64,000 nucleotides of DNA from positions 128,001-192,000 of the forward strand of contig CAVVNQ010000004.1 in NCBI GenBank assembly GCA_963749705.1, in the 5' to 3' direction. This DNA is from an uncultured Chloroflexia bacterium (GTDB lineage: Bacteria > Chloroflexota > Limnocylindria > Limnocylindrales > CSP1-4). This document shows positions 13,282-23,738 of this stretch, in pieces. Every line of letters begins with the position of its first letter. The first letter of the stretch is position 1. Made by a program: the position numbers and the translations under genes. The notes beneath the pieces are model-generated. The model saw only the letters and a list, made by a program, of their open reading frames with translations. It was not told the DNA's origin and did not search any database.

Positions 13282-15453
13282 ATGACCGCCGTTCGACCCG
13301 CTCCCGGACCCCGCGCCGCGTCCCGCGGCCGACGGCGGGCGGTGCACGACCATAAGGCCCCGATCCTCAACCGCGAGCTGTCGTGGATCGAGTTCAACGC
13401 CCGCGTGCTCCACGAGGCCCGCGACACGCGCAACCCGATCCTCGAGCGCGTCAAGTTCCTCGCGATCTTCGCGTCCAACCTCGACGAGTTCTTCCAGGTT
13501 CGCGTGTCCGGGTTGCGCCGGCAGGACCTGGCCGGCTCGCAGCACCTGTCCTCGGACGGCCTGACCCCGGCCAAGCAGCTGGACGCGATCCGGGCCCGGG
13601 TCCGGGACCTCGTCGCCGAGCATTCCCTGATCTTCGCCACGATCCGCGAGGAGCTCGCCGGCGAGGGCGTCGAGATCGTGGACTACGACGACGTTCCCGA
13701 GCACCACGACACGCTCCGGCGCCGGTTCCACGACGAGATCTTCCCGGTCCTGACGCCGCTCGCCGTGGATCCGGGACACCCGTTCCCGTACATCAGCACC
13801 CTGTCGCTCTCGATCGCGGTCGGGCTGCGGGACCCCGAGACGGGCGAGAAGCGGTTCGCGCGGGTCAAGATCCCGCCGATCCTGCCCCGCCTGTTCGAGG
13901 TCGAGCGCGACCGGTTCGTGCTCCTGGACCAGGTCATCGAGGCCAACCTCGACGAGCTGTTCCGGGGCATGGAGATCCTCGAGACGCACCTGTTCCGGGT
14001 CACCCGCGACGCGGACATCGCGATCGAGGAGGACGAGGCGGACGACCTGCTGCTCGCGATCGAGGAAGAGGTCCGGCGGCGGCGGTTCGGCGAGGCGGTC
14101 CGGCTCGAGGTCGAGCGCTCGATGCCGGAGCTGACGCGCAAGATCCTGATCAACGGCATCGGGCTGCGCGAGGACGACAGCTTCGAGGTCGCCGGGATGA
14201 TGGACCTCACGGCGCTGTGGCAGCTCGCCGAGCTCGACCGTCCCGACCTCAAGGCGCCGACCTTCACGCCGGTCGTGCCCCAGCGGCTGCTGCCGCCGGA
14301 CGAGGACGAGCCGGTCGACGTGTTCGCGCAGATGCGGGCCGGGGACCTGCTCCTCCATCACCCGTACGACTCGTTCACCGCCTCGGTCGAGCGGTTCATC
14401 TCGCAGGCCGCGGACGACCCCCTGGTGCTGACCATCAAGCAGACCCTGTACCGGACGTCGGGCGACTCGCCCATCGTCAAGGCGCTGATCCGCGCGGCGG
14501 AGCAGGGCAAGCAGGTCGTGGTCCTGGTCGAGATCAAGGCGCGCTTCGACGAGGAGGTCAACATCGTCTGGGCGCGCAAGCTTGAGCAGGCGGGCGCCCA
14601 CGTCGTGTACGGGCTGGTCGGCCTCAAGACCCACTGCAAGGTCGCGCTCGTCGTCCGGCGCGAGGGCAACGGGCTCCGGCGCTACGTCCACATCGGCACC
14701 GGCAACTACAACTCGCGGACGGCGCGCCTGTACGTGGATCTCGGCCTGCTCTCGTGCCGCGAGGAGCTGGGCGCGGACGTCACGGACCTGTTCAACGTGC
14801 TCACCGGGCTGTCACGCCAGAGCGTGTTCCGCCGCCTGCTCGTGGCGCCGATGACGCTCCGGTCGCGCTTCCTCGAGCTGGTCGAGCGGGAGGCGGCGAA
14901 TGCCCGTGCGGGCCAGCAGGCCCGGATCGTGATCAAGGTCAACTCGCTGGTCGACACCCAGGTGGTCGAGGCGCTGTACGAGGCGGCGCGGGCGGGCGTC
15001 GAGATCGAGTGCATCATCCGGGGCGCGTGCTGCCTGGTCCCCGGCGTCCCCGGTGCCTCCGAGCGGGCGCGCGCGCGCTCGATCATCGGCGAGTTCCTGG
15101 AGCACTCGCGGATCTGGATGTTCGCCAACGGCGGGCGCCCTGAGTGGTACATCGGGTCGGCGGACCTGATGGAGCGCAACCTCGATCGGCGGGTCGAGGT
15201 CGTGACCCCGGTCGAGGATCACGAGGCGCAGGTCCGGCTCGCGCGGATCATCGAGGTCATGCTGGCCGATGACCGCCGCTCGTGGCAGCTGCAGTCCGAC
15301 GGCCGATGGGTCCGGACCGAGGTGCTGACGTCGGCCGCGGGCGAGATCGACACGTTCGCCGTGCTCAAGCAGGATGCCGCGGCCGCCGCAGCCGCCGCGG
15401 ACGTGCCCAGACGGCCGCACTCGAACGTCGGATCGATGGACCCGCGCGCGTGA
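13282..15453 (+). CDS. ppk1: Polyphosphate kinase 1
   Basis: NRELSWIEFNARVL, SNLDEFFQVRV, HHPYDSF, IKQTLYRTSGDS, LKTHCK, GTGNYN and GSADLMERNLDRRVE. Confidence 0.97.
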   Translation: MTAVRPAPGPRAASRGRRRAVHDHKAPILNRELSWIEFNARVLHEARDTRNPILERVKFLAIFASNLDEFFQVRVSGLRRQDLAGSQHLSSDGLTPAKQLDAIRARVRDLVAEHSLIFATIREELAGEGVEIVDYDDVPEHHDTLRRRFHDEIFPVLTPLAVDPGHPFPYISTLSLSIAVGLRDPETGEKRFARVKIPPILPRLFEVERDRFVLLDQVIEANLDELFRGMEILETHLFRVTRDADIAIEEDEADDLLLAIEEEVRRRRFGEAVRLEVERSMPELTRKILINGIGLREDDSFEVAGMMDLTALWQLAELDRPDLKAPTFTPVVPQRLLPPDEDEPVDVFAQMRAGDLLLHHPYDSFTASVERFISQAADDPLVLTIKQTLYRTSGDSPIVKALIRAAEQGKQVVVLVEIKARFDEEVNIVWARKLEQAGAHVVYGLVGLKTHCKVALVVRREGNGLRRYVHIGTGNYNSRTARLYVDLGLLSCREELGADVTDLFNVLTGLSRQSVFRRLLVAPMTLRSRFLELVEREAANARAGQQARIVIKVNSLVDTQVVEALYEAARAGVEIECIIRGACCLVPGVPGASERARARSIIGEFLEHSRIWMFANGGRPEWYIGSADLMERNLDRRVEVVTPVEDHEAQVRLARIIEVMLADDRRSWQLQSDGRWVRTEVLTSAAGEIDTFAVLKQDAAAAAAAADVPRRPHSNVGSMDPRA

Positions 15454-17174
15454 CCGATGTCGCCATCCCGCGACCCGGCGGCGTGGTCGAGGTCGAGCTC
15501 AAGTTCCGCATGTCCGGGACGGGCGCCGGGACCCGGCTGATCGCCGCCGACGACCTGGCCGGGTTCGCCGCGCTGGCGCCCGCGGCGACGGTCCGGCACG
15601 AGGACCGGTACGTCGACACGGCCGACGGCCGGCTGGCGGCGGCCGGCTACGCGGGACGGTTCCGGTCGGCGGGCGATGTCACGGTGCTCACGCTCAAGTC
15701 CCTCCGCTCTGACGCCGAGGACGGCGCGCTCCACCGGCGCGAGGAGCTGGAGGGCCCGGCGATCGCCGAGGTCCCACCCGATGCGTGGCCCGACTCCGCG
15801 GCTCGCACCGCCGTGCTCGAGCTGCTGGGCGGTGCGCCGCTGAGCGACCTCGTGACCGTCCGGCAGACACGGCACAAGCGAACGTACGGGCGCGAGGGGG
15901 TCGTCGTCGAGCTGTCCGTCGATGACGTGGAGATCGTGGCCGGCGAGCGGGTGCTGGACCGGTTCGCCGAGCTCGAGGTGGAGCTCATCGAGGGCGGCGA
16001 GGCGGCGCTCGAACCGCTCGCTGACCTGCTCGCCGAGGTCGAGGAGCTGGTCCCCGCCGAATCGTCGAAGCTCGAACGGGCGCTGGAGGCCGTCGCCCAC
16101 GACCGGGCGGGCACGGGCGACCTTCGCGAGGCACCCCAGGGCCCCCGGACGAGCGTGGCTGCCGGACCGGTCGAGGTGCCCGCGTCGGGCACGGACGTGA
16201 CCGCGACCCAGGCGCCGGAGCCGGCCGTCCCGCGGATCACCGTCCCCAAGGCGCCGGGTGTCATCTCCGAGGACCACCTCGCCGAGGCGGGTCGGAAGGT
16301 GCTCCGGTTCCACCTGGCCCGGATGATCGCCCGCGAGCCCGGCACCCGCGTCGGCCGCGACGACGCGGAGCTGCACGCGATGCGCGTGGCGACGCGGCGA
16401 CAGCGCGCCGCCTGGCGCGTGTTCGGCGAGGCGTTCGACCGCAAGGCGACGGCCCGCCACCGGGTCCGGCTGCGCGAGGTCGCCCGGGACCTGGGTGCGG
16501 TCCGGGACCTCGATGTGCTGATCGGGGCCGCCGAGATGCATCGTGCCCAGCTGCCGGCACGCGAGGCGGCGGCCTTCGACCGGCTGATCCAGGGGTGGCG
16601 CGGGCAGCGCGAAGGTGCCCGCGAGGTCCTGCTCCGGGAGCTCGACTCGGGCCGCTACCGCAAATGGGTCGACGGGTACGTGGAGTTCGTCCAGGCCGAG
16701 GGAGCGGGCGCTCTCCCGGTCGGGCCGACCCAGCCCCACCGCGTGCGGGACACGATGCCGTCGCGGATCTGGGCGGCGTACGAGGGCGTTCGCGCCTACG
16801 AGCCCGTGCTCAGGTGGGCCGACGTGACCACCCTCCACGACCTCCGGATCGCGGCCAAGTGGCTGCGCTACACGCTGGAGTTCGTGCGCGAGGCGCTGGG
16901 ACGTGACGCCGGCCCGGTCATCGAGAAGATCGTCGCGCTCCAGGACCACCTCGGCTGGCTCCACGACGCGGACGTGGCGGCGGCCCTTGCGCGCCAGTAC
17001 CTGGTGGAGCACGCGGGCGACCTCACGGAGCTCGAGAGCGCGGCGATCGGCCGCTATCTCGTCGATCGGGAGCGGGAGCTCGCGCGGCTCCGGCGGACCG
17101 TCGGCGGACCCTGGCGCGGGTTGTCGAGCCTCGCCTTCCGTCGCGCGCTCGGCCGGCTCGTGGCGGGCCTGTAG
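15450..17174 (+). CDS. CYTH (triphosphate tunnel) + CHAD domain protein
   Basis: N-terminal EVELKF (ExExK) and ELEVEL. CHAD motifs LHAMRVATRR, LGAVRDLDV, LHDLRIAAKWLRY and LQDHLGWLHD. GTGA overlap with ppk1. Confidence 0.9.
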   Translation: MTDVAIPRPGGVVEVELKFRMSGTGAGTRLIAADDLAGFAALAPAATVRHEDRYVDTADGRLAAAGYAGRFRSAGDVTVLTLKSLRSDAEDGALHRREELEGPAIAEVPPDAWPDSAARTAVLELLGGAPLSDLVTVRQTRHKRTYGREGVVVELSVDDVEIVAGERVLDRFAELEVELIEGGEAALEPLADLLAEVEELVPAESSKLERALEAVAHDRAGTGDLREAPQGPRTSVAAGPVEVPASGTDVTATQAPEPAVPRITVPKAPGVISEDHLAEAGRKVLRFHLARMIAREPGTRVGRDDAELHAMRVATRRQRAAWRVFGEAFDRKATARHRVRLREVARDLGAVRDLDVLIGAAEMHRAQLPAREAAAFDRLIQGWRGQREGAREVLLRELDSGRYRKWVDGYVEFVQAEGAGALPVGPTQPHRVRDTMPSRIWAAYEGVRAYEPVLRWADVTTLHDLRIAAKWLRYTLEFVREALGRDAGPVIEKIVALQDHLGWLHDADVAAALARQYLVEHAGDLTELESAAIGRYLVDRERELARLRRTVGGPWRGLSSLAFRRALGRLVAGL

Positions 17175-17176
17175 GC

Positions 17177-19375
17177 CTAGCCCTCCCAGCCGCCGGCCAG
17201 GACGGGCAACCGGTCCCGCCAGGCACGACCCGCGATGGCACTCACCAGGATCGCCCCTTCCCGGATGCCCGCCTCGGACACGCGCAGGCGGTCGACGCCG
17301 TACCGGTCCAGGATCGCGTCCACGATCACGGCGCCGGCCGGCAGGATCCTGGCCCGGGTGTGGCGGAGCGTGTGACGCGCCGCGGTGTCGGCACTGGTCC
17401 CGACCGTCAGCATCGCGAGCGCGATCGTCACGCGGCGGCTGGTGAGGATGCTGTCGGACGTCCGTCCCGGCAGGATCCGCAACAGGTTGGACGCGGTTCC
17501 GCCGACCGCGACCATCTCCTCGGGACGGGCGTCGGGCGCGTCGGCGATGACGCGTCGAGCGTCGATGACCATGGCGTCGATCTCGTCCATCGTGGGCGGA
17601 TCGGATCGAACGTGATCCTGCGTCAGGCGCGCTGATCCGAGCGGCAGGCCGATGCACCGGGCGGGCTCGCCCGGCGAGGAGACGACGATCTCGGAGCTGC
17701 CGCCGCCGATGTCGACGACCATGATCTCGCGACCGGCGGCCCGTCCCATCGTGACGCCCGCCAGCGTGAGCATGCCCTCTTCACGGTGGTCGAGGACGTA
17801 CAGCGGCAGGCCAGTACGCGCCTCGACGTCGCGGACGAGGATCGCGGCATCGGCGGCGCGCCGGATCGGCTCGGTGCCCATCAGCACGACCTCGACGGCA
17901 CCGAGGTTCCGGGCGGCCTCCGCGTATGTCGCCAGGGCAGCGACGAGGTCATCGCGCGCGGTCGCACCGAGGAAGCCATCCGTCGCCACGCGATCGCCCA
18001 GCCCGAGGAACACCAATTCGTCGAGCATCGGATCGAGCTGGTGGCCCCCGGCCGCGGCGACCAGGAGATGGACGCTGTTGGCGCCGATGTCGATGGATGC
18101 ACCGACGACGAGCTCGGGACCGGTCACCAGCAGCGGCCGGGAGATCTCGATCACGGTCACCGACGGTCCCTGGGGCTCCAACCCGGCGGCGGCTGCCGGC
18201 GGCAGGTCAGCTGCGAGCTCCGGCTCGGCGGCGGTGGACGGTTCGGGGGCGGCGGACGGTTCGTCCGGCGCGACGGGGGCCACGTCGTAGGCGTCCGGAA
18301 CATCGTCATCGGGACTCGACATGTACGGCGGCGCGACCTGGGCGTCAAAGGCGAAGCCGGTTCGATCGGGTGACATGGCGAATGGCGGCTCGACCGGCCA
18401 CGGATCGGACGGCGTTGCGAACGCCGGCTGCCGTGGTCCTGGCTCGGGTTCGGGTTCCGCCTCGAGGGGCGGCTCAGGTTCGAGCTCGAGGGCCGGCTCG
18501 GGCTCAGACTCCGGTTCCGGCTCCAGGGCGAGTTCGGGCTCGGGTTCGGGCTCGAGGGCGAGTTCGGGCTCCGGCTCGATGGCAGGTTCGGGCTCGAGGG
18601 CGAGTTCGGGCTCCGGCTCGATGGCCGGTTCGGGCTCGAGGGCAGGTTCGGGTTCGGGCTCGGGTTCGGGCTCGGGCTCGGGCGCCGATCCGACCTCGGG
18701 TTCCGATTCGACCTCGGCCTCCGGTTCGGGGTCGCGCTCGCGCCGCCCGACACGGTCGACGATCCGCGACGCAGCGGGCTCAGCGGTCTGGCGGACGAGA
18801 TCGGCGACCTCCTGGAGCACCGCTTCGGCAGCTGCGGCCATCTCGCCCGATTGCTCTGCCTGCTCCGGTACGGGCTCGGGCGCGGGCACGGCGACCCGCG
18901 CCGCGCGCTCTCGCTTGACCCGCCGAGCATCCGCATGCACATCGACCGCCGTTGCGGCGACGTCCGCGGCCGTTCGTTCGATCCTGCGGGCTGCTTTCGC
19001 CGCCCGCTTTGCTGCCTTGGCCGCCCGTTGCGCCGCCTTCTCGGCGGCGGCCGCCTCCCGCCGCGCCGCCCTGGCCCGCCGTTTCGCTTCCTTCCTTATG
19101 GCCTTCCGTTCCGCCTTGCGCGCGGCCTTGCGGGCGGCTTTCGCCTTCTTCGCGGCGCGCCTGCCGGCCTTTGCCTCGCGCTTCGACATTGCGTCGTCGG
19201 CCGGCTCCTGGTCCGGCGTCTCGCGGACGCCGCCCGCGCGCGGCAACCCTGTGCCCGTCGGCGGCACGTCCAGACCACCCGGCGCGCCCGCAAACGGGTT
19301 GTCGAGCCCGCTCGTCTCGCCGCTCCGACGCCAGTCGGTCCTGTCGTGATCACCCACCGCACAAGTCTGCCCCAC
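17177..19375 (-). CDS. Ppx/GppA-family exopolyphosphatase with a ~400-aa low-complexity N-terminal extension
   Basis: C-terminal domain has [31 protein letters not shown] and GIREG. Start uncertain (19375, 19357 or 19189). Confidence 0.8.
18440..18740. repeat. Pro-Glu (PE)n low-complexity coding repeat
   Basis: Runs of (c/t)tcggg hexamers encoding PEPEPE and [14 protein letters not shown] on the minus strand. Confidence 0.9.
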
Positions 19376-19502: not shown

Positions 19503-19524
19503 GTTAACCCGCACTTAACGGTCC
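19503..19524 (+). promoter_or_regulatory. Candidate Pho box (two TTAAC direct repeats, 11-bp period) upstream of pstS
   Basis: gTTAACccgca cTTAACggtcc, about 100 bp upstream of pstS. AT-rich words in a GC-rich context. Confidence 0.5.
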
Positions 19525-19622: not shown

Positions 19623-20774
19623 GTGACCATCACCCCTGCGAGGCGCCTCGGCGCGATCGCCCTCGCCGCGACCATGTTCGTCGCCGCCTGCGGCGGCTCC
19701 GGCGCCACCACCGCGCCCACCGACCAGTCGGCGGCAAGCATGGCTCCCGGATCCTCGGGCGACGCGATGACCGGACCCGAGCCCGGCACGGCGAGCCTCG
19801 TGCTCCAGGGCGCCGGTGCCACCTTCCCGGCCCCCCTGTACCAGGTCTGGTTCGAGAAGTACACGGAGCTGCACGGCAACATCCAGTTCGACTACCAGGC
19901 GATCGGCTCCGGCGGTGGCATCAAGGCCATCACCGAGCAGACCGTGGACTTCGGCGCATCCGATGCAGCGATGAAGGACAGCGAGATCTCCGCGCTCCCG
20001 GCCGGCGTCACGCTGCTCCATGTCCCGACCGCGCTGGGCGCCGTCGTGGTGATCTTTAACGTCCCGGGCGTGACCGACCTGAACCTCGACGCCGACGCGG
20101 TGGCCGGGATCTTCCTGGGCACGATCACCAACTGGAACGACCCGAAGATCGCGGCGCTCAATCCCGGCGTCACGCTCCCCGACCTCGCGGTCACGGTCGT
20201 CCATCGCAGCGACGGCTCGGGCACGACCAACGCCTTCACCACCTACCTCGACACGGTCAGCCCTGACTGGCACGCGGGTCCCGGTGCGGGCAAGGAGGTC
20301 AACTGGCCGGTGGGCATCGGTGCCCCGGGCAACGACGGCGTCGCCGGCGGCGTCAAGCAGACCGACGGGACGGTGGGCTACGTCGAGCTCAACTACGCCG
20401 CGCAGGCCGGGCTGACGTCGGCCAAGGTCAAGAACGCCGACGGCCAGTTCGTCGCCGGATCGACCGCCGGCGTCACCGCTGCCGCGGAAGCCGCCGCCAC
20501 CACCTTCCCCGCCGACTTCCGCCAGGCCCCGATCATCAACGGTGCGGGCGCCTCGACCTATCCGATCGCTTCCTACACCTACCTGCTGATCCCGGTCGAC
20601 TGGACCGACGCTGACAAGGCGCAGGCGATGGTCGCGTTCACCTACTGGGCGCTGACCGACGGCCAGGCGGACGAGGACGGGCTGGGCTACGCACCGCTCC
20701 CCGCCCCGATCCAGCAGAAGTCGCTCGACGAGCTCCACAAGGTCATGGCCAACGGGTCCGCCGTCTGGCCCTGA
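19623..20774 (+). CDS. pstS: Phosphate ABC transporter substrate-binding lipoprotein
   Basis: Lipobox FVAAC, GAGATFPAPLY, GSGGG, DFGASD and RSDGSGTT. GGAGG RBS. Confidence 0.96.
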   Translation: MTITPARRLGAIALAATMFVAACGGSGATTAPTDQSAASMAPGSSGDAMTGPEPGTASLVLQGAGATFPAPLYQVWFEKYTELHGNIQFDYQAIGSGGGIKAITEQTVDFGASDAAMKDSEISALPAGVTLLHVPTALGAVVVIFNVPGVTDLNLDADAVAGIFLGTITNWNDPKIAALNPGVTLPDLAVTVVHRSDGSGTTNAFTTYLDTVSPDWHAGPGAGKEVNWPVGIGAPGNDGVAGGVKQTDGTVGYVELNYAAQAGLTSAKVKNADGQFVAGSTAGVTAAAEAAATTFPADFRQAPIINGAGASTYPIASYTYLLIPVDWTDADKAQAMVAFTYWALTDGQADEDGLGYAPLPAPIQQKSLDELHKVMANGSAVWP

Positions 20775-20800
20775 GCCAATCCCTCGCACTCCCTCCTCCG

Positions 20801-20836
20801 CCGACCGGTCCCGCATCTCGGAGCGGGACCGGTCGG
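20801..20836 (+). terminator. Perfect 14-bp stem-loop between pstS and pstC (mRNA stabiliser or partial terminator)
   Basis: ccgaccggtcccgc-atctcgga-gcgggaccggtcgg. No U-tract. Confidence 0.55.
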
Positions 20837-20897
20837 TCCCGTTCGTCGGCACTACCCTTGGCAACGTGACCCTTCCCCGCCATTCGAGGATCACCGC

Positions 20898-21860
20898 ATG
20901 ACGACGCTCCAGGTCCCCGGACGACGGCTTGCCTCCGGCTCGGGCAAGGTCGCCGACCGCCTGTTCCGTGGCGGATCGGGCCTCGCCGCGTATGCGGTCG
21001 TCGGGATCCTGATCCTGCTGGCGGCGATGCTGACGCTGAGCAGCACCGAGGCCCTGACGCACTTCGGGATCGTCGAGTTCATCACGGGCACGACCTGGGA
21101 CCCGGTCAACCGGATCTTCGGTGCGCTGCCGTACATCGTCGGCACGCTCCTGTCCGCCGCGATCGCGCTGGTCATCGCCACACCGATCGCGCTGCTCACC
21201 GCGATCTACCTCTCGGAGCTCGCGCCGCGCCGGGTCGCGATCCCGCTCACGTTCCTGGTCGAGCTGATCGCAGCGGTCCCATCCGTCGTCATCGGCCTGT
21301 GGGGCGTGTTCGTGCTGACGCCGTTCCTCAAGCTGACCGTCGAGTCCTTCCTCGTGAGCACCCTCGGCGGCTCGATCAGCATCTTCGAGGGGCCGCCGCT
21401 GGGGATCGGGCTGTTCGCCGCCGGCGTCATCCTCGCGATCATGATCCTGCCCACCATCGTGTCCGTCTCGCGCGAGGTCATCACCTCGGTGCCGATGGCC
21501 CAGCGCGAAGCAATGTTCGCCCTCGGCGCCACGCGCTGGGAGGTGGTCACCAGGGCCGTCCTGCCGGCGGCCAGGTCGGGCATCGCCGGGGCGGTGATCC
21601 TGGGCCTGGGCCGCGCGCTGGGCGAGACGATGGCCGTGACCATGGTCATCGGCAACGCGCAGGACATCCCGACGTCGCTGTTCGACCAGTCGCAGACCAT
21701 CGCGTCCAAGATCGCGACGACCTTCAACGAGGCGTCGGTCGGGCTCCAGACCTCGAGCCTCATCGCCCTCGGCCTGATCCTGCTGGTGCTGACGATCGGG
21801 CTCAACATCGTGGCCCGGTTGCTGGTGTGGCGGGTCGCCGGCGCGGTCGGCACGGAGTGA
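20898..21860 (+). CDS. pstC: Phosphate ABC transporter permease PstC
   Basis: ELIAAVPSVVIGLWG, EAMFALGATRWE and GRALGETMAV. Confidence 0.95.
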   Translation: MTTLQVPGRRLASGSGKVADRLFRGGSGLAAYAVVGILILLAAMLTLSSTEALTHFGIVEFITGTTWDPVNRIFGALPYIVGTLLSAAIALVIATPIALLTAIYLSELAPRRVAIPLTFLVELIAAVPSVVIGLWGVFVLTPFLKLTVESFLVSTLGGSISIFEGPPLGIGLFAAGVILAIMILPTIVSVSREVITSVPMAQREAMFALGATRWEVVTRAVLPAARSGIAGAVILGLGRALGETMAVTMVIGNAQDIPTSLFDQSQTIASKIATTFNEASVGLQTSSLIALGLILLVLTIGLNIVARLLVWRVAGAVGTE

Positions 21861-21864
21861 TGGC

Positions 21865-22753
21865 ATGACCGCAGGCTCCCCCGCCGTCGCTGCCCGGGGC
21901 GTGCTCAGGAGGTCGGCGTCCGATCGTCGCCGCAGCCTGGTCGACCGCACGTTCCGCGCCATCGCGCTGCTCGCAGCGATCAGCGGGATCGTGCCGCTCG
22001 CGTTCATCGTCGCGTTCGTGACGATCAACGGCATCGGTGCCCTCAACCTCGACCTGCTGACCAGGCCGCCGAAGGCGCTTGGGCGTCGGCGGGGGTGCGC
22101 TGGCGGCGATCCTTGGCTCGCTCCAGCTGGTCGGCCTGGCCACGCTGCTGGCGGTCCCGTTCGGGATCCTCGCCGGCGTGTACGTCAACGAGTTCAGCGA
22201 CCGGCGGTCCGCCCGCGTGATCCGGTTCGCGGCCGACGTCCTGGTGGGCGTCCCGTCGATCCTGGTCGGGATCTTCGTGTTCAGCTTCCTGGTGCTGCCG
22301 TTCAAGCAGTTCAACGCGTTCGCCGGCGCGGTGGCCCTGGCCGTGATCATGGTCCCGGTGATCATGCGCACGACCGAGGAGATGCTCAAGATCGTCCCCG
22401 GCACGCTCCGGGAGGCGTCGCTGTCGCTGGGCATCCCGGTCTGGCGGACGGTGCTCTCGGTCGTCATCCCCACCGGGCTGTCCGGGATCCTGACCGGCCT
22501 CATGCTGGCCATCGCCCGCGCGATGGGCGAGACTGCTCCCCTGCTGTTCACGGCACTCGGCAGCCGCCTCGTGAACGTGGGTGACTTCGGGCGGCCGATG
22601 GACGCCCTGCCGATCTTCATCTATGTCAATGCCCGGCAGCCGTACGAGGCGCTGAACCAGCAGGCCTGGGGTGCCGCATTCCTGCTGCTGGCATTCGTGC
22701 TCGTGATCAACGTCCTGGTGCGGTTCCGCACCTGGGGCCAGCGGGCCGGTTGA
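21865..22753 (+). pseudogene. pstA: Phosphate ABC permease PstA split by a +1 frameshift near 22080 (real lesion or sequencing error)
   Basis: N-part in ORF 21865 (..LLTRPPKAL); C-part in ORF 22079 (GVGGGALAAILGS..GVPSILVG..ARAMGETAPLL). Deleting one base from ctt-ggg joins them. Confidence 0.85.
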
Positions 22754-22760
22754 GGGAGCC

Positions 22761-23738
22761 ATGACCGTGAACCTGACCACACCGCCGAACCTCGAGCCGT
22801 CGACCGAGCCGGGGACGGCGCCGTCGACCGAGCCGGGCGGGGCGTCGCACCAGCCCGCGCGCGATCCCGCGACCCCGTCGGCGTCGGAGGGCGCGGTCGT
22901 CCGGCGCGCGGTGCCGCCCGATCCGGCCGCCCGGGACACGCCGGCGCCGGGTGCCGCCGAGGCGACGAGCGGCAGGATCGAGATCCGGGGCCTGTCCGCG
23001 TACTACGGCTCGTTCAGGGCCGTGCGCGACGTCTCGATGACCATCCGGCCGCACGCGGTCACGGCCATCATCGGGCCGTCCGGCTGTGGCAAGAGCACGT
23101 TCCTGCGAAGCCTCAACCGGATGCACGAGCTGGTCCCCGGCGCCCACATCGAGGGCCAGCTGCTGCTCGACGGCATCGACCTGTACGCCGACGACGTGGA
23201 CCCGGTCCAGCTGCGGCGGGTGATCGGGATGGTGTTCCAGCGGCCGAACCCGTTCCCCACCATGTCGATCTACGACAACGTGGTCGCGGGGCTGCGGCTC
23301 ACGGGGCGTCACCCCCGGTCATTGCTCGACGAGACGGTCGAGCGCTGCCTCCGGTCCGCGGCCCTGTGGGACGACGTGAAGGACAAGCTCCGGCAGCCCG
23401 GAACGTCGCTGTCGGGCGGCCAGCAGCAGCGGCTGTGCATCGCGCGCGCCCTGGCGGTGGACCCGGCCGTGCTGCTGATGGACGAGCCGGCGTCCGCGCT
23501 CGACCCGGTCGCGACGCTGCGGATCGAGGAGCTGATGCACGAGCTGCGGGCCAACTACACGATCGTGATCGTGACCCACAACATGCAGCAGGCGGCCCGG
23601 GTGAGCGATCAGACGGCGTTCTTCAACATGGACGACGACCGGGCGGGCTACCTTGTGGAGATGGCCGACACGACCACGATCTTCACCAACCCGGCCGACC
23701 GGCTGACCGAGGACTACGTGTCCGGCCGGTTCGGCTGA
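22761..23738 (+). CDS. pstB: Phosphate ABC transporter ATPase
   Basis: [45 protein letters not shown] and [10 protein letters not shown]. Confidence 0.96.

Follow-up and report, generated by a model that had tools for sequence, protein, structure and literature searches.

The open reading frame at 17177..19375 on the minus strand of the window (the whole 64-kb stretch of DNA analysed here) encodes a protein of 732 amino acids plus a stop codon. Judged from its sequence, this protein is a short-type exopolyphosphatase of the Ppx/GppA family with two domains, to which an accessory arm particular to the clade is attached: an N-terminal extension of 420 residues that comprises a polycationic helix, a conserved motif and an acidic linker. 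We infer, and narrowly regard as probable, that the cationic helix binds long-chain polyphosphate (polyP), that the acidic linker acts as both spacer and self-shield, and that the motif docks a partner.

The catalytic core (aa 421-732, 17180..18115, minus strand) consists of two ASKHA domains without the C-terminal domains III and IV. The Pfam family Ppx-GppA (PF02541) matches aa 439-710 with E 9.5e-33 and 114.3 bits (cut-off 27; the genome-wide search scores it at 117.9 bits), and the AlphaFold2 model gives pLDDT values mostly above 94 across aa 421-732, in agreement with the sequence-only reading, which had confined the domain to the last ~310 residues. In the genome, which is 88% complete, a profile search detects PF02541 in this reading frame alone. 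All 50 sequences compared share D429, G431, S434, E532, E533, D555, G557-G559, S560 and E562, which correspond to the DIGSNS, EQEG, DQGGGS and E motifs in the alignment with Aquifex PPX; we take these residues to be those that bind phosphate in ASKHA proteins and the catalytic acidic ones. The dN/dS of the core is 0.09 and 0.19 relative to two relatives. Two narrower models score below their cut-offs: TIGR03706 (exo_poly_only) reaches 177.4 bits of the required 307, and NF008108, the E. coli-type exopolyphosphatase, reaches 63.5 bits against 864, with only positions 14-302 of 513 matched.

The closest solved structures are the Aquifex PPX/GppA chains 2j4r, 1t6c and 1t6d (308-315 aa, E 4e-22), with which aa 424-713 align. 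Short Ppx/GppA enzymes such as those of Aquifex aeolicus (1t6c/2j4r), M. tuberculosis (PPX1, Rv0496) and C. glutamicum (PPX2) have a similar core and also lack domains III and IV; however, they have no N-terminal arm, whereas here helix, motif and acidic linker precede the core. The E. coli-type PPX/GppA proteins (1u6z, 2flo; ~500 aa) belong to the same family, and the arm-free database relatives nearest to the protein are 306-356 aa long.

Long spurious frames are common in high-GC genomes and the open frames 5' of ppx in other genera look non-coding, which would fit the extension being an untranslated or non-functional low-complexity frame, open by chance in 72%-GC DNA, with the true start near the catalytic domain. 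This explanation is highly improbable, as it is already contradicted by several observations: dN/dS is low in the helix (0.06-0.17) and ~0 in the motif, the architecture is kept in 46 proteins from many assemblies, the basic residues follow a helical periodicity, and GC3 in the frame of the gene is coding-like, at 0.73-0.93 along the entire 17177..19375. A start just before the catalytic domain, which the sequence-only reading had named as a reason to abandon its proposal, is not what the relatives indicate. The internal ATG at 19189 of the window is ACC in genome G020, and similarity to genome G009 begins exactly at GTG 19375, where third-position changes are synonymous. The start is likely this GTG, ahead of the basic block. 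By these comparative measures the frame is one translated protein, and its extension is under purifying selection. Its N-terminal tip (aa 1-62, 19190..19375, minus strand) is Gly/Asp/Pro-rich, has a net charge of -6 and is predicted to be disordered (pLDDT below 50 across aa 1-59), with a dN/dS of 0.36-0.43 against two relatives. Opposite charges are strongly segregated along the protein (SCD -16.9, compared with +11.0 +/- 1.2 in 300 shuffles).

The cationic part of the arm spans aa 63-160 (18896..19189, minus strand). Described earlier as a block of ~70 residues upstream in the same frame, it is indeed there but is longer, with 98 residues that include 15 Lys, 22 Arg, 38 Ala and no Pro (net charge +27). 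All 15 Lys of the protein fall within this segment, and the catalytic core has none alongside its 31 Arg. Lysine makes up only 1.46% of the proteome (K/(K+R) 0.136 in 1,221 long ORFs), and we argue from this contrast that selection acts on the charge itself. AlphaFold2 models a single helix (aa 61-157, pLDDT 83-90), and its model of homologue P0042 likewise has one long helix. The Lys and Arg residues recur with a period of 3.67 residues, matched by none of 200 shuffles, and a spectral peak at 94-104 degrees is present in 41 of 44 homologues; in 35 of the 44 the peak is reached by 0/200 shuffles, and only two of them (P0015 and P0022) have blocks that contain Pro and a period close to 3. The block is predicted to form an amphipathic helix whose cationic stripe runs unbroken along it and whose non-charged face is alanine. 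Its dN/dS, 0.17 and 0.06 against two relatives, is low like that of the catalytic domain.

Isolated alpha-helices of the ER/K type (single alpha-helix, SAH) owe their stability to acidic and basic residues that alternate in roughly equal numbers. This balance is lacking in aa 63-160, where basic residues outnumber acidic ones 37 to 10, so the free helix should be destabilized, and the prediction may overstate the order of the block. No comparable Ala/Lys/Arg block was detected in the other ORFs of the genome, searches with Pfam and NCBIfam assigned the block to no DNA-binding family, and a search of the ESM Atlas for look-alikes of aa 60-216 returned no usable match. A simple cationic helix would bind DNA or RNA too.

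Between the basic and acidic blocks lies a motif of ~30 residues that the sequence-only reading had not mentioned, A-x-x-VLxEVAxLVRQAxEPAAxRIVxRV, whose core (aa 183-212, 18740..18829, minus strand) is predicted to form two short amphipathic helices (aa 177-197 and 201-210, pLDDT 57-74 in AlphaFold2), with hydrophobic residues at i, i+1, i+4, i+7 and i+8. A strict regular expression finds the motif in 44 of 60 proteins. A183, L187, E189, A191 and L193 are nearly invariant, and its dN/dS of 0 and 0.02 against two relatives makes it the most constrained part of the protein. An HMM of the motif has a single match in its own genome, namely this ORF (E 3e-15; next best 0.15). In a motif-only search of a set of 5.8 billion proteins, for which the 47-aa query is too short, one of 574 candidates had E<=0.01, and a single-sequence search of low sensitivity found matches in 7 of 151 genomes of the family. 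In genome G089 the motif lies 105 nt upstream of the Ppx match. In the AlphaFold2 model of homologue P0042, where only 13 residues separate the motif from the core, the motif helix has a pLDDT of ~80 and the joining segment is below 50. In neither this model nor that of the protein studied here is the motif or the helix placed against the catalytic core.

The acidic linker (aa 217-320, 18416..18727, minus strand) matches the earlier description of a ~100-residue Pro-Glu repeat. Its 104 residues include 38 Glu, 32 Pro and no Lys (net charge -37) and are predicted to be disordered; a 42-bp unit repeated 3.3 times in tandem (18541-18680) points to recent repeats inside the block. The only Pfam match there is a weak one to Trypan_PARP (E 0.0093). 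A second disordered segment that is rich in Pro, Ala and Asp (aa 321-420, 18116..18415, minus strand, net charge -15) leads into the domain and is weakly constrained (dN/dS 0.35-0.61 for aa 340-420); together the two make an acidic, disordered stretch of ~200 residues. Among homologues the distance from motif to domain ranges from 13 to 271 residues with the composition kept, and the linker always lies between basic helix and core, even where the order of the motif is swapped. Three other, unrelated proteins encoded in the genome likewise have Pro/Glu blocks for linkers. We infer that the acidic linker behaves as a spacer. A latch in which the two arms neutralize each other 1:1 is not indicated: their charges correlate only weakly (Pearson -0.40, kinship ignored; Spearman -0.27, p 0.07), and the acidic arm mostly outweighs the basic one in homologues (mean -28 compared with +14).

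In 46 homologous proteins the two blocks again come in this order, basic before acidic, so that the check for conservation in orthologues suggested by the sequence-only reading turns out positive. In 15 of 24 genomes of the same genus, a separate match to the N-terminal part lies directly 5' of the Ppx match. Two genomes of this genus (G003 and G005) nest within the extension-bearing clade in the tree while lacking the whole arm; the extension is thus present in relatives, though lost in two close ones, and is dispensable for the enzyme in some lineages. The tree indicates one gain of the arm in a Limnocylindrales clade, followed by at least two losses. A 'GGPF(N/D)P' string 5' of ppx in other genera might have been a protein motif but was set aside, because it could equally be a translated GGAGG ribosome-binding site with a start codon. 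Among sequencing runs that share sequence words with this DNA, none of RNA is listed. Five DNA runs, from soil or wetland metagenomes, each contain at most 0.30 of the words; the contigs assembled from these five runs are short and of low depth, and none spans the extension.

The gene neighbourhood is that of polyP and phosphate metabolism, as the sequence-only reading had recognized and Pfam matches bear out. On the plus strand, convergent to ppx, are ppk1 (polyphosphate kinase 1, 13282..15453), which matches all four PPK1 Pfam domains, and a gene for a CYTH (TTM) and CHAD protein (15282..17174; PF05235 CHAD E 7e-48, PF01928 CYTH E 8e-16) that provides the single CHAD match in the genome. Divergent from ppx are the phosphate transporter genes pstS-pstC-pstA-pstB (19623..23738, plus strand; PBP_like_2, BPD_transp_1 twice and ABC_tran), of which pstS (19623..20774, plus strand) comes first. 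The ppx/pstS intergenic region contains the direct repeat GTTAA-N6-GTTAA (19504..19519, minus strand), a candidate Pho-type operator that is unique in the 64-kb window (0 expected from 100 shuffles) and kept in G020 and G009. The ppx gene shares this candidate operator with pstS, which suggests that it is used in phosphate mobilization.

In the reading that we favour, the cationic helix would bind long-chain polyP or the granule surface, probably folding upon binding. Its core of ~70 residues would be ~10 nm long and could contact a few tens of phosphate units. In this way the helix may supply the polymer binding and processivity that the C-terminal domains provide in E. coli PPX and that short Ppx enzymes lack. 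The available excerpts of PMC3411833 describe the short M. tuberculosis enzyme MTB-PPX1 as missing the C-terminal polyP-binding region of EcPPX, preferring short chains and not being highly processive. By analogy with E. coli PPX, where an appended polymer-binding part aids action on long chains (PMC3411833, in excerpt), the arm may have a similar role; however, the E. coli enzyme uses folded C-terminal domains, whereas here we propose an N-terminal cationic helix of unrelated sequence on a disordered acidic tether. The linker would keep anchor and catalytic core apart and so leave the core free to look for the ends of chains. Being itself a polyanion in cis, it may also shield the helix from DNA and RNA, which are weaker polyanions, until it gives way to dense polyP. 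A putative partner would dock at the invariant motif.

A stronger version, which we consider fairly unlikely, treats the arm as a self-gated polyP sensor and tether, whose lysine stripe is covered at rest by the acidic Pro/Glu block. To displace that block, a polyanion would need both the charge density of polyP and sufficient length; the helix would then fold along the chain, park the hydrolase on granules and turn it from distributive to processive, and through the motif this state would be coupled to a partner, for instance PPK1 or the CYTH-CHAD protein.

Several other functions of the arm were weighed. The sequence-only reading had suggested tethering to polyP granules or the nucleoid, an autoinhibitory acidic arm and a polyP condensate module. 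The helix may instead be a nucleic-acid anchor, to nucleoid or RNA, that sets Ppx beside nucleoid-associated polyP and does not itself bind polyP, a role that has been put forward for the AlgP and PhaF tails. The block is Lys/Ala-rich as in known DNA-binding tails, a bare cationic helix has no obvious preference for polyP over DNA, and the parts of PMC9239181 that were available report binding of KPAA peptides to DNA and a coating of AlgP on the nucleoid in the absence of polyP. However, the segment has no Pro, no KPAA-type repeats and a helical periodicity, DNA-binding families of Pfam and NCBIfam do not match it, the denser polyanion is the enzyme's own substrate, and a large acidic arm in cis would outcompete weaker polyanions best; we consider such an anchor unlikely. 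A similarly low probability applies to the arm as a mainly regulatory or phase-separating block polyampholyte. In that case, either the acidic arm would fold back against the basic helix, or against the core's basic path for polyP, and hold the enzyme inactive, or the positive and negative blocks of separate molecules would coacervate with polyP into a condensate that includes PPK1 and CHAD. The extreme charge segregation relative to shuffles, the shared order of basic and acidic blocks in the 46 proteins and the negative charge correlation between the arms are in line with it, but that correlation is weak and ignores kinship, the acidic arm varies ~20-fold in length (13-271 aa) with a poorly constrained sequence, and Pro/Glu blocks are plain linkers in unrelated proteins of the genome.

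Helix and motif could also be a scaffold for oligomerization or partner recruitment, for example an Ala-faced coiled coil or a docking element for PPK1 or CYTH-CHAD, with the positive charge incidental. The strong constraint on the motif (dN/dS 0-0.02, the lowest of any segment), its amphipathic pattern and the alanine face of the helix agree with this. However, a net charge of +27 over a helix of ~100 residues disfavours self-association without a polyanion, the Lys enrichment in a Lys-poor proteome argues against incidental charge, and the motif is absent from the other ORFs of the genome, which together make a pure scaffold quite improbable.

The arm differs from the known polyP-associated elements with which it was compared. 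The sequence-only reading had called the basic block histone-H1-like, which holds for its Lys/Ala-rich composition but not for its structure: it lacks Pro and KPAA-type repeats, and its K/R spacing of 3.6 residues and predicted helix place it outside the AlgP/H1 type. The AlgP and PhaF tails of Pseudomonas are likewise Lys/Ala-rich and polycationic. However, AlgP, which associates with polyP granules, has Pro-containing KPAA tandem repeats in a C-terminal tail that is predicted to be disordered and has no enzyme attached (PMC9239181, in excerpt), whereas the block studied here is N-terminal and fused to a hydrolase and an acidic counter-block; it shares the composition of these tails and not their Pro repeats or disorder. 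The same excerpts report that P. aeruginosa Ppx is not enriched on polyP granules, and granule residence is therefore not general to Ppx. CHAD domains (phosins) are helical, bind polyP along conserved basic surfaces and are encoded beside polyP enzymes (available sections of PMC6537752), as at this locus, but CHAD is a folded two-times-four-helix bundle with its own Pfam model, whereas the arm has a single predicted helix; a profile search of the extension for PF05235 gave no match at E<=0.01. Lys-rich low-complexity regions, namely PASK and PASK-like sequences and the disordered basic regions of E. coli YihI and RNase R, bind polyP non-covalently, and PASK is defined there by 20-aa windows that have a D/E/S/K content of 75% or more and include one or more K (PMC12345225, in excerpt). 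No window of the protein qualifies, the best Lys-containing one having 45% D/E/S/K, and PASK-like regions mix charges that are here in separate blocks. We found no published description of such a Ppx extension in a literature search that covered only a minority of subscription journals, and the available portion of a cyanobacterial polyP paper (PMC13556221) holds no relevant passage on Ppx localization, disorder or N-terminal features.

It is poorly understood how polyP enzymes find and hold their granule-bound, long-chain substrate, and how short-type Ppx enzymes, without the polymer-binding domains of E. coli PPX, handle long chains. The clade is a natural modular experiment: besides the forms with the arm, G003, G005 and other genera have the same catalytic core without it, and the lysine stripe, motif and acidic linker that make up the arm are each separable. 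As the host belongs to an uncultured soil lineage of the Chloroflexota, the value of the system lies in mechanism and tools rather than in physiology. The Lys-rich helix of ~100 residues is a candidate for a simple polyP-binding element, distinct from CHAD, PASK and KPAA tails, and if the self-gated version were true, the arm would be a minimal natural reader of polyP length that also targets a degradative enzyme to granules and could be used as a polyP probe.

The Ppx-fused frame proposed at 17177-19375 on the minus strand is real, encoding 732 aa from a GTG start. The Ppx-GppA domain spans aa 439-710 (Pfam, E 9.5e-33), and aa 421-732 are folded in an AlphaFold2 (AF2) model with 50 homologues, with pLDDT mostly >94. 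Ahead of this core lie a Gly/Asp/Pro-rich tip (aa 1-62), an Ala/Lys/Arg block (aa 63-160; 15 K, 22 R, 38 A, no P, net +27), a motif-bearing segment (aa 161-216), a Pro/Glu block (aa 217-320; 38 E, 32 P, net -37) that contains 3.3 copies of a 42-bp unit, and a Pro/Ala/Asp-rich stretch (aa 321-420, net -15). Third-codon-position GC is 0.73-0.93 along the entire ORF frame, and opposite-charge segregation over aa 63-420 is far above that of all 300 shuffles.

Four lines of comparative evidence (homologues, a strict parse, relatives' genomes and codon substitutions) indicate that the extension is translated and selected. A word-indexed database search returned 58 proteins of 409-907 aa with a Ppx-GppA domain, two of them from sources named "Candidatus Limnocylindrales bacterium" (Limnocylindrales is a Chloroflexota order). 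Both charged blocks proved to be conserved in these orthologues; in most of them the charge profile runs from a basic through an acidic block into the enzyme. A strict parse requiring the catalytic motif, at least 130 aa ahead of it and the motif at query aa 183-212 kept 46 proteins, including the query. The motif-to-core stretch is net negative in all 46, and the stretch ahead of the motif is net positive in 43; in the other three, the database proteins P0042, P0051 and P0054, the order is basic-acidic-motif-core. The Ppx core is present in 24 of 24 same-genus genomes searched, and 15 of these have a separate match starting at or before query residue 74, directly upstream on the same contig and strand (in others, contig ends interrupt or the match reaches only the acidic part). 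Nei-Gojobori dN/dS values of the query against the relatives G020 and G009, respectively, are 0.43 and 0.36 for the N-terminal tip, 0.17 and 0.06 for the basic block, 0 and 0.02 for the 30-aa motif core, and 0.09 and 0.19 for the catalytic core.

The annotated GTG at 19375 is a plausible start, because the internal ATG at 19189 is ACC in G020, and nucleotide conservation in G009 starts exactly at this GTG, with synonymous third-position changes onward. The basic block is within the protein whichever start is taken. The ppx frame is broken within or near the Pro/Glu-coding repeat at three relatives' loci (L002 in G020, L003 in G009 and L025 in G118), and in G016 (C19:804095-805043) a frameshift lies within the core. 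These frameshifts could be assembly errors at repeats or true length or phase variation.

The sequence-only reading called the basic block histone-H1-like, which holds for its composition and fails for its structure, given the lack of proline and the helical K/R periodicity. For 41 of 44 homologues, the K/R positions in the most basic 60 residues have their strongest period between 94 and 104 degrees per residue (3.5-3.8 residues), and in 35 of the 44 the observed power was reached by none of 200 shuffles. The region forms one helix of ~100-120 residues in both AF2 models. The absence of proline, the ~3.6-residue K/R period and the single modelled helix together indicate an amphipathic helix that has alanine on one face and carries a cationic stripe. 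The block contains every lysine of the protein (15), and the catalytic core has none (0 K, 31 R); across 1,221 long coding-like ORFs of the same genome, lysine makes up 1.46% of residues and K/(K+R) is 0.136. No comparable Ala/Lys/Arg block was found in other ORFs of the genome at the thresholds used. Lysine as such appears to be under selection in the block. Only one long ORF of the genome, with 462 aa on the minus strand (G000:C8, reverse-strand offset 199164), has a lysine window denser than the Ppx arm, at 17 K in 98 aa. In the 335-position NCBIfam adenylate kinase model NF010381, the C-terminal tail (positions 218-330) weakly matches aa 61-161 of the query (P0001; E 0.0055), a hint that similar Ala/Lys tails occur on other nucleotide or phosphate enzymes.

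Between the charged blocks, at aa 183-212, lies a motif that the earlier reading overlooked, A-x-x-(V/M)LxEVAxLVRQAxEPAAxRIVxRV. The strict pattern is present in 44 of 60 proteins. Across 50 aligned sequences, in which the remaining extension barely aligns, conservation reaches ≥90% at five motif positions. AF2 predicts two short helices here (pLDDT 57-74), and neither model shows the motif docking on the core. A shared targeting peptide is ruled out, since a profile of 47 motif instances matched only this ORF in its own genome (E 3e-15; next best 0.15).

The acidic linker appears to behave as a spacer: it is invariably positioned between helix and core, the motif-to-core length is 13-271 aa across parsed proteins, it evolves through repeat expansion, and similar blocks join domains elsewhere. 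This organism uses Pro/Glu linkers repeatedly; they are found in three other ORFs that encode TPR, 4Fe-4S dicluster and zinc-ribbon/DUF7402 proteins (L053-L055; G000:C3:329133-329810, C7:86069-87289 and C20:3500-5419). Arm charges correlate at Pearson -0.40 and Spearman -0.27, and evidence for a stoichiometric latch between the arms is weak.

An exhaustive HMMER search of 1.84 billion representatives gave 144 proteins at E<=1e-30; among the matches listed, those just outside the extension-bearing group have 306-356 aa and a domain start within ~35 residues. A family-level sample of 151 genomes from 49 genera has the Ppx core in 113 genomes and 36 genera, a tally that takes in the unpublished genomes G121 and G177, which contributed to no other result; 29 loci of the sample were read. 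Of the six from the window's genus, four carry the arm in full; in G118 a frameshift in the Pro/Glu repeat interrupts it, and G005 is without it. Neither the motif nor the block architecture was found at any of 23 loci from 12 other genera, where the frames upstream of ppx look non-coding. In 16 small genomes (1.0-1.4 Mb) of a second family of the order, the frame is 342-362 aa long wherever it is intact.

In a quick maximum-likelihood tree of 132 cores (midpoint-rooted, SH-aLRT support only), 56 of 59 long forms fall within one clade of 64 rows (support 95). The complete short genes of G003 and G005 both lie deep within it; G003 is 85% identical to the long form P0004, and G005 is sister to the long form P0040 (support 99). 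No helix-plus-motif copy was found elsewhere in either genome. The simplest reading is that the arm was gained once and lost at least twice. Some rows of short or intermediate length in this clade probably reflect gene calls truncated on fragments. More distant Ppx homologues just outside the main clade (P0084, P0088, P0091 and P0086) have an N-terminal extension of another kind, Arg-rich and helical, with a motif-like "...VLEEA..." segment and then an acidic/Pro linker. It may represent the arm in an older form or one that arose in parallel.

The neighbours were also correctly identified, with ppk1 and CYTH-CHAD convergent on ppx and pstS divergent; the divergent genes run on as pstS-C-A-B. 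In this genome (3.6 Mb, 22 contigs, 88% complete) Ppx/GppA and CHAD have one match each, both at the ppx locus. Only 2 nt lie between the end of the CYTH-CHAD ORF (17174) and the ppx stop codon (17177-17179). This gap leaves no space for separate terminators, and the two transcripts may overlap at their 3' ends. In its longest frame, CYTH-CHAD shares ~170 nt (15282-15453) with the end of ppk1, and its CYTH domain begins only at aa 70; translation probably starts close to the ppk1 stop instead, an arrangement suggestive of translational coupling. The ppx/pstS intergenic region holds a GTTAA-N6-GTTAA direct repeat (11-nt spacing, 19504-19519). It occurs nowhere else in the 64-kb window, for which shuffles predict 0 copies, is conserved in G020 and G009, and is a candidate Pho-type operator common to the divergent pstS and ppx. 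The pstA region (21865-22753) is spread over two frames: ORF 21865-22584 has no Pfam match and ORF 22079-22753, in the other frame, has BPD_transp_1, so that this may be a frameshift or a wrongly chosen ORF.

The protein is a Ppx/GppA family member, and is not of the E. coli long PPX type. The best solved relatives of its core are Aquifex enzymes of 308-315 aa, the match to a 513-position E. coli-type profile is limited to the first ~300 positions, and the core is of the short two-domain type. According to PMC3411833, E. coli PPX holds the polyP chain mainly by its C-terminal region; the short MTB-PPX1 does not have this region, favours short chains and is not highly processive. In E. coli, YihI and RNase R bind polyP through disordered regions rich in lysine (PMC12345225), and in helical CHAD domains the polymer runs along basic surfaces (PMC6537752). 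From the short core type and these precedents, we infer that the lysine stripe may anchor Ppx on long-chain polyP or granules. The stripe would bind the long chain or the granule surface, the helix would probably fold upon binding, and the polyP-bound helix would hold the hydrolase on its substrate; the linker, a polyanion in cis, might additionally keep DNA or RNA off the helix. Against polyP anchoring, two close relatives have lost the arm, cationic helices on their own are not polyP-specific, and P. aeruginosa Ppx was in the lysate, not the granule fraction (PMC9239181).

The Ppx arm is no member of the KPAA/H1-like, CHAD, PASK or ER/K helix classes, and full-text searches, in a library with few subscription journals, listed no account of a Ppx extended in this way. 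This natural fusion is conserved, modular and easy to test, and bears on how polyP enzymes recognize long chains and granules.
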